Shown piece by piece: positions 30,701 to 30,839 of a stretch of DNA of 37,286 bases. Source of the stretch: Escherichia coli. GTDB taxonomy: Bacteria; Pseudomonadota; Gammaproteobacteria; Enterobacterales; Enterobacteriaceae. Made by a program: the position numbers and the translations under genes. Below the pieces are notes generated by a model that searched no databases, was not told the origin of the DNA, and worked only from the letters and a program-made list of their open reading frames with translations. The number at the start of each line of letters is the position of its first letter. Position 1 is the stretch's first letter. The stretch is taken from the NCBI RefSeq assembly GCF_003334815.1, contig NZ_QOWO01000036.1, one strand, 5' to 3'.

Positions 30701-30839
30701 ACGCACTCCCTGTTAGTGGCTGACAAGGTGTATCTGAAATACACACCATCAGATTACTCATTTAACTTAGGGAAAAATGCGAGCGGGATCGTGTTTAACC
30801 AGACGGCACCTCCCGAAGAAGGTGCCGAAGAAAAAACGA

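Follow-up and report, generated by a model that had tools for sequence, protein, structure and literature searches.

A class of Escherichia coli transcripts, mostly Rho-dependent, ends just past stable stem-loops that have neither a U-rich tail nor an upstream A-tract and that show a mild enrichment of C over G downstream; these stem-loops block PNPase and RNase II after diffuse downstream termination, and it was suggested that terminators may switch type by a change of U content alone (Dar and Sorek 2018, PMC6061677). Two other described systems are comparable, namely the canonical intrinsic terminators, in which a GC-rich hairpin is followed by a contiguous U-tract, and the stabiliser hairpins and REP elements of the malE-malF type, which lie between the cistrons of a polycistronic RNA. 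Here, we addressed a hairpin located downstream of opgD in a 37,286-nt stretch of E. coli DNA (the window). We propose, with a probability of about 80%, that the opgD mRNA terminates in this stem-loop at its 3' end, with the hairpin serving as a leaky, U-poor terminator or as a protective hairpin. The site is an ordinary one, already catalogued as an opgD 3' terminus in two published supplementary tables; our literature search found no paper covering both opgD and ydcH and none with the hairpin sequence, and the opgD hairpin has never been studied individually.

The window is part of the E. coli core chromosome in reversed orientation relative to MG1655, with rimL on the same (-) strand as opgD and ydcH, and ydcK on the + strand. 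Over 171 nt, from the opgD stop across the intergenic region into the start of ydcH, the window matches MG1655 exactly; the hairpin could therefore be placed directly on NC_000913.3, and the opgD transcription start was converted from MG1655 by the sequence identity of the two (table 1). The RefSeq annotation contains nothing at the hairpin site.

Table 1. Features of the opgD-ydcH region in window coordinates, with strand and source or MG1655 counterpart.
Feature	Window position	Strand	Source or counterpart
opgD (mdoD) CDS	30840..32495	-	ORF list; RefSeq annotation of MG1655 and other genomes
opgD stop codon	30840-30842	-	MG1655 stop end = 1498511
opgD transcription start	32573	-	MG1655 1496778; SMRT-Cappable-seq, PMC6131387 Suppl. 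Data 1 and the available part of the operon table
ydcH CDS	30476..30700	-	ORF list and annotation; ydcH ATG = MG1655 1498651
Stem-loop on opgD-sense RNA	30804..30827	-	MG1655 (NC_000913.3) 1498524-1498547
Tail UCUGGU holding the mapped opgD 3' ends	30798..30803	-	Published 3'-end maps
U-rich run UUUUUUCUU between stop codon and stem	30828..30836	-	U6 = 30831-30836; read from sequence
ydcH intrinsic terminator, just after the ydcH stop	hairpin 30447-30467 plus U-tract, to 30442	-	d-score +4.8

The hairpin derives from the inverted repeat CGGCACCT/AGGTGCCG, and the order on the opgD strand is UAA-UCG-UUUUUUCUU-stem-loop-UCUGGUUAAAC. The initial annotation had described an 8-bp stem at 30804-30827, 12 nt downstream of the opgD stop, with the U-run 5' of the stem on the opgD strand. 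The position was correct, the stop and the stem are exactly 12 nt apart (30828-30839), and UUUUUUCUU does precede the stem, with just four noncontiguous U in the 8 nt of the tail; however, the size was underestimated, since the sense RNA forms the stem-loop CGGCACCUUC-UUCG-GGAGGUGCCG, with 10 bp (eight Watson-Crick pairs plus a U.G and a C-G pair) and a cUUCGg tetraloop. Both the 10-bp stem and the 4-nt loop lie within the range of intrinsic terminators (stem of ~5-14 bp, loop of 3-8 nt). The sense hairpin folds at -17.9 kcal/mol with a z-score of -5.35, and none of 200 dinucleotide shuffles was equally stable, whereas the antisense strand forms a weaker hairpin of 8 bp with an 8-nt loop (-13.5 kcal/mol). 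An extended pairing returned by RNAfold, in which the stop-codon and U-run region pairs with the downstream AAACACGAU, was rejected: across seven Escherichia sequences, the outer pairs showed no compensatory change and some were broken, and the pairing was also dropped because the mapped 3' ends lie upstream of its 3' partner. A search of 29800-31800 with the covariance models of Rfam 15 (E <=10) gave no match overlapping the hairpin and only four chance-level matches, all away from it. The 24-mer of the hairpin occurs once in the window even when up to three mismatches are allowed (0 expected). Perfect stems that reach a length of 8 bp or more and contain six or more G-C pairs are enriched about sevenfold in the window (six, vs. 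0.8 in Markov simulations). Further perfect GC-rich stems of 8-9 bp were observed at 4879-4901 (TTGCCCGGC…GCCGGGCAA), 8397-8418 (ATGCCCGG…CCGGGCAT), and 26198-26217 (GCGCCATC…GATGGCGC), and are probably other terminator or 3'-end hairpins.

Within E. coli, a 36-nt hairpin query was found at a single place per genome in 5418 of 5426 complete genomes, identical in 4313 and with one mismatch in 1101. In all three of the 1101 one-mismatch genomes that were fetched, and in two others, the change was C6>U in the stem, which keeps a U.G pair on the sense RNA and would give an A.C mismatch on the opposite strand; in one E. coli strain, the loop changed from UUCG to UACG and so retained the UNCG type. 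Among 20 aligned Escherichia and Citrobacter sequences, standard pairs occupied 96.2% of the pair cells, compared with 51-58% when the 3' partners were slid, and five stem pairs showed double compensatory changes. At one covarying pair, E. coli has A-U, E. albertii G-C, and Citrobacter U-A, and other pairs alternate between C-G and U-A; in addition, the alignment holds 23 G.U cells, at which the opposite strand would carry A.C mismatches. RNAalifold independently returned the same helix. Both the sequence and the length of the loop vary, which is expected of a structural element and not of a sequence motif. Judged from this pattern of substitution, the hairpin is conserved as an RNA structure of the opgD strand and is selected at the RNA level.

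The U-run upstream of the stem behaved differently. In the four further Escherichia lineages that were sampled, a T6 run adjoins the stem; in Citrobacter, a pyrimidine-rich spacer takes its place and the hairpin is kept. The initial annotation had regarded the run as a U-tract on the wrong side, which is not a recognised functional arrangement, and the U6 is kept in Escherichia but not in Citrobacter; the upstream U-run cannot serve a terminator on either strand, and nothing in our analysis pointed to a function of the run. A terminator acting for the opposite strand was also considered and rejected: read along the + strand, the stem is weaker, and the sequence after it is AAGAAAAAA instead of U.

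We extended the comparison to the Enterobacteriaceae by fetching 80 loci with the OpgD C-terminus, of which 79 were usable. A simple hairpin of -12 kcal/mol or lower, starting within 35 nt of the opgD stop, was present in the loci of 75 of these 79 species; the median stability was -18.2 kcal/mol, compared with -5.9 kcal/mol in shuffled controls, 6 of 40 of which reached -12. The more stable strand was the opgD-sense strand in 52 loci and the antisense strand in 11. The T content after the stem differed among the 74 strong hairpins. At least five T in the next 8 nt, as in canonical terminators, followed 21 hairpins (e.g., in Klebsiella, Kluyvera, Cedecea, some Enterobacter, and two Citrobacter); four T followed 17, all Escherichia among them; and three or fewer followed 36, including most Citrobacter, Kosakonia, Phytobacter, and Salmonella arizonae and diarizonae. 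Among the loci compared, Escherichia and Citrobacter are the only genera in which ydcH follows opgD. A rimL-like gene begins a few nucleotides past the hairpin in many of the other genera, and therefore the hairpin cannot be a tight terminator in those genera.

Some loci depart from this arrangement. REP-like GCCGGATAAGCG…CATCCGGC palindromes, some with a T-run, replace the unique hairpin after opgD in Pseudocitrobacter, Lelliottia, and several Enterobacter (loci L042, L043, L050, L023, L063, L073, and L084). The hairpin is absent from Pseudescherichia vulneris and two relatives (L054, L057, and L070), in which the Shine-Dalgarno sequence and ATG of the next gene directly follow the opgD stop (TAAGGAAAGGAGAGCAGATG), an arrangement that, on the sequence, implies tight co-transcription. 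In Citrobacter amalonaticus (L021), the spacer between opgD and ydcH is longer by an insertion of ~64 nt at ~2210-2275 (…AAGCCCTAAATAATTCGGGTTGCAGGAAAGCCAACACACCTGCAGCTTGAAGTATGACGG…), which we take to resemble the ends of an ERIC/IRU element with its centre deleted.

Two published data sets place the 3' ends of opgD transcripts at the hairpin. SMRT-Cappable-seq, which reads full-length 5'-triphosphate transcripts, reported a transcript that covers b1424, starts at TSS 1496778, and ends at TTS 1498551; it is labelled "novelTTS" and occurs in M9 as well as in rich medium (PMC6131387 Suppl. Data 1). An analysis of RNAtag-seq/term-seq libraries (TRS) listed a "Primary" opgD 3' terminus with dominant positions 1498552/1498553, a signal of 0.62-0.72, and rank 1213, and printed the same fold (-18.9 kcal/mol) with a maximal U-tract of 2 (PMC10687069 Suppl. 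Data 2-4). MG1655 1498551 is window 30800, and 1498552-1498553 are 30799-30798; thus, the opgD mRNA ends 4-6 nt past the stem (GCCG-UCUGGU), and it is this hairpin that sets the opgD 3' end. The initial annotation had named clean opgD ends elsewhere as the result that would speak against a role of the stem, and the two maps place the ends at the stem instead. The Term-seq tables of Adams 2021 hold no 3' end at 14985xx, and the TERMITe tables hold no entry for the site.

The same data revealed read-through. In M9, 57 reads were counted at the TSS, 10 at the TTS, 14 passing the TTS, and 2 ending within 50 bp downstream, with a median read-through of 132 nt; the corresponding values in rich medium were 58, 10, 1, and 20, with a median of 227.5 nt (PMC6131387). 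In that study, a TTS call refers to one single position supported by 10 reads or more, so the reads ending within 50 bp may include some with ends just 1-5 nt beyond it. Passage of the site by more than 50 nt was seen in 14 of 26 reads (54%) in M9 compared with 1 of 31 (3%) in rich medium (Fisher p = 1.4e-5), a comparison of small counts with 10 reads at the TTS in each condition. The available part of the operon table lists the variants b1424, b1424|b1426, and b1424|b1426|b1427, all from TSS 1496778, and among its entries, given in positional order, none starts at ydcH (PMC6131387). The opgD-ydcH read-through transcript anticipated by the initial annotation is therefore represented there, in opgD-ydcH(-rimL) transcripts from the opgD promoter.

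A dRNA-seq "nearby TSS" (Thomason 2015) is recorded at 1498529 (window 30822, - strand), inside the 5' arm of the hairpin (TRS Suppl. Data 4); the part of the SMRT-Cappable-seq operon list available to us has no TSS there. A promoter of the sigma-54 or sigma-70 type, inside the stem or upstream of it, was rejected as its source, as by eye neither an acceptable -10 element nor a suitable -24/-12 spacing was seen. The entry may reflect RNA processing that left an exonuclease-resistant end, or else a coordinate mismatch between genome versions.

The hairpin is not a canonical intrinsic terminator, in agreement with the initial annotation. A promoter/terminator consensus scan of 30300-31300 found none, and the tail UCUGGUUA has four U in 8 nt with a longest run of two, short of the U-tract of ~7-8 nt that defines such terminators. 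The adjacent ydcH terminator, 360 nt downstream of the opgD hairpin, offers a direct comparison: it consists of AAGCCGCC-AGCCA-GGCGGCUU followed by UUUUAAC. The two sites share a GC-rich hairpin near the stop, a UUCG-type loop, and a 3' end a few nucleotides past the stem; however, the opgD hairpin is without a contiguous U-tract (UCUGGUUA vs. UUUUUUAA), and the classical hairpin-plus-T-tail discriminant gave a d-score of -14.2, against +4.8 for ydcH. Read-through at the opgD hairpin is also high and dependent on the growth condition, unlike at a canonical terminator. Nevertheless, the contrast with a terminator implied by the initial annotation was overstated, given that the published maps put the opgD end so close after the stem. 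At the ydcH terminator, TRS reports a strong 3' end at MG1655 1498909 (window 30442, signal 0.98; PMC10687069). Oddly, the rimL TSS of SMRT-Cappable-seq, 1498884, corresponds to window 30467, the first base of the ydcH terminator hairpin.

The class of Dar and Sorek resembles the opgD site more closely. Common to both are a precise steady-state 3' end (1498551-1498553) right after a stable stem-loop, stem and loop dimensions like those of intrinsic terminators, and the lack of a U-rich tail and an upstream A-tract (UUUUUUCUU-stem-UCUGGUUA). As regards the C-rich, G-poor (rut-like) sequence expected just downstream, the C/G ratio at opgD is 2.0 over the first 40 nt after the stem and 1.05 over 103 nt, so any C>G bias is short. 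On the basis of these likenesses, the opgD hairpin most probably works like, and belongs to, this U-less 3' stem-loop class; its tail keeps four U in 8 nt, so it may be a case of the "transition state" of Dar and Sorek. Like the stabilisers of the malE-malF type, the hairpin lies between the cistrons of a potentially polycistronic RNA (opgD-ydcH-rimL) and marks the end of a more abundant upstream segment; unlike REP elements of that type, it is a unique sequence.

According to the scheme that we favour, transcripts from the opgD promoter (MG1655 1496778) end 4-6 nt past the stem. Without a proper U-tract, the hairpin is leaky, and part of the polymerases continue to produce opgD-ydcH and opgD-ydcH-rimL transcripts. 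In the most likely mechanism, many polymerases would read past the stem, and termination further downstream, Rho-dependent or other, or cleavage would then end their transcripts; PNPase and RNase II would next shorten these RNAs in the 3'-to-5' direction as far as the very stable cUUCGg hairpin, and the hairpin would block these exonucleases, thereby fixing and protecting the opgD 3' end, and a role in opgD RNA stability is plausible. Some hairpin-induced release at the imperfect tail UCUGGUU may add to this. The structure, its conservation at the RNA level, the location of the 3' ends, and the read-through are observed parts of the scheme; the enzyme or factor that creates the 3' ends is inferred. 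The translation start of ydcH lies 103 nt past the stem, which would leave little untranslated RNA for Rho and counts against a Rho model.

Direct release is the main alternative to trimming. The hairpin could be a self-sufficient weak intrinsic terminator that releases RNA at the UCUGGUUA tail without Rho and at modest efficiency, so that the mapped ends are the termination points themselves, an explanation compatible with the 3'-terminal hairpin proposed above. Ends 4-6 nt past the stem, on 5'-triphosphate transcripts, fit direct weak intrinsic termination equally well; the very stable GC-rich hairpin with its UUCG loop and a tail in which the four U include positions 1 and 3 also suit it, and the real U-tracts after the hairpins of Klebsiella, Kluyvera, Cedecea, some Enterobacter, and two Citrobacter suggest a decayed or evolving terminator. 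Against it stand the failed consensus scan, the d-score so far below that of the ydcH terminator, and the longest U run of two, and the 30 of 31 site-reaching transcripts that end within 50 nt in rich medium would be unexpectedly efficient without a factor. We therefore regard weak termination as a possible explanation, tentatively held. As to the events at the 3' end, downstream termination or cleavage followed by trimming to the hairpin is favoured in our analysis over direct release at roughly even odds, and both may operate.

Other explanations appeared considerably less probable. A processing element, in which RNase E would cut the U-run 5' of the stem to give ydcH-rimL RNA a protective 5' hairpin and to destabilise opgD, is suggested by the single-stranded U-rich run next to the stem, by the existence of read-through transcripts, and by the dRNA-seq 5' end at 1498529 near the site; yet that end lies inside the stem and not in the U-run, where no 5' end has been reported, no SMRT-Cappable-seq TSS matches it in the operon entries available, Citrobacter keeps the hairpin without the U-run, and the mapped 3' ends lie past the stem, so opgD keeps its hairpin. 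We consider such processing improbable. The intergenic position of a GC-rich palindrome, together with the REP-like GCCGGATAAGCG...CATCCGGC at the same post-opgD position in Pseudocitrobacter, Kluyvera, and some Enterobacter, might point to a repeat-family element (REP/BIME-like) or a protein-bound DNA palindrome. REP elements are multicopy, however, and the repeat-family idea was rejected because the sequence is single-copy, both in the window and in each of the 5418 E. coli genomes; it has no Rfam match, and the retention of pairing under sequence change, with G.U on one strand only, is the signature of an RNA, leaving this reading very improbable. A chance palindrome without function, the least credible reading of all, is effectively refuted by the 3' ends that map to the hairpin in two independent data sets, and also conflicts with the z-score, the covariation, and the recurrence of the hairpin after opgD across the family.

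The region between the hairpin and ydcH carries further conserved sequence. A perfect 6-bp palindrome, GTGTAT-N5-ATACAC, lies at window 30728-30744, ~25 nt upstream of the ydcH Shine-Dalgarno sequence, and persists in Escherichia and Citrobacter, where the substitutions maintain its pairing (for example, GTATAT..ATATAC, and one U.G); a hairpin in the 5' UTR or a site for a regulator are both conceivable. A block, CGATCC(C/T)G(C/T)TCGCATTTTTCCC, at 30750-30795 on the - strand is nearly invariant between Escherichia and Citrobacter, despite ~30 extra nucleotides after the hairpin in Citrobacter. Transcriptome evidence alone has described ydcH as H2O2-induced and OxyR-linked (PMC4207228); thus, this block may be part of a regulated promoter region of ydcH itself.

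The sole mildly interesting residue of the locus is the apparent medium-dependent read-through into ydcH-rimL. Speculatively, and at low odds in our estimation, the hairpin might act as an attenuator under the control of growth conditions and so gate the passage of opgD-promoter transcription into ydcH-rimL, with the Escherichia-conserved U6 5' of a UNCG hairpin as a putative site for an Hfq- or ProQ-type chaperone, or another factor, that tunes read-through. Taking the 3'-terminal hairpin as the preferred reading, the opgD 3' UTR is fixed at ~40-42 nt, and the only ydcH-containing transcripts listed in the available part of the SMRT-Cappable-seq operon table begin at the opgD promoter. Across the Enterobacteriaceae, the position of the hairpin is kept while the U-tract comes and goes, which provides an example of the switching between intrinsic and Rho-assisted termination proposed by Dar and Sorek.
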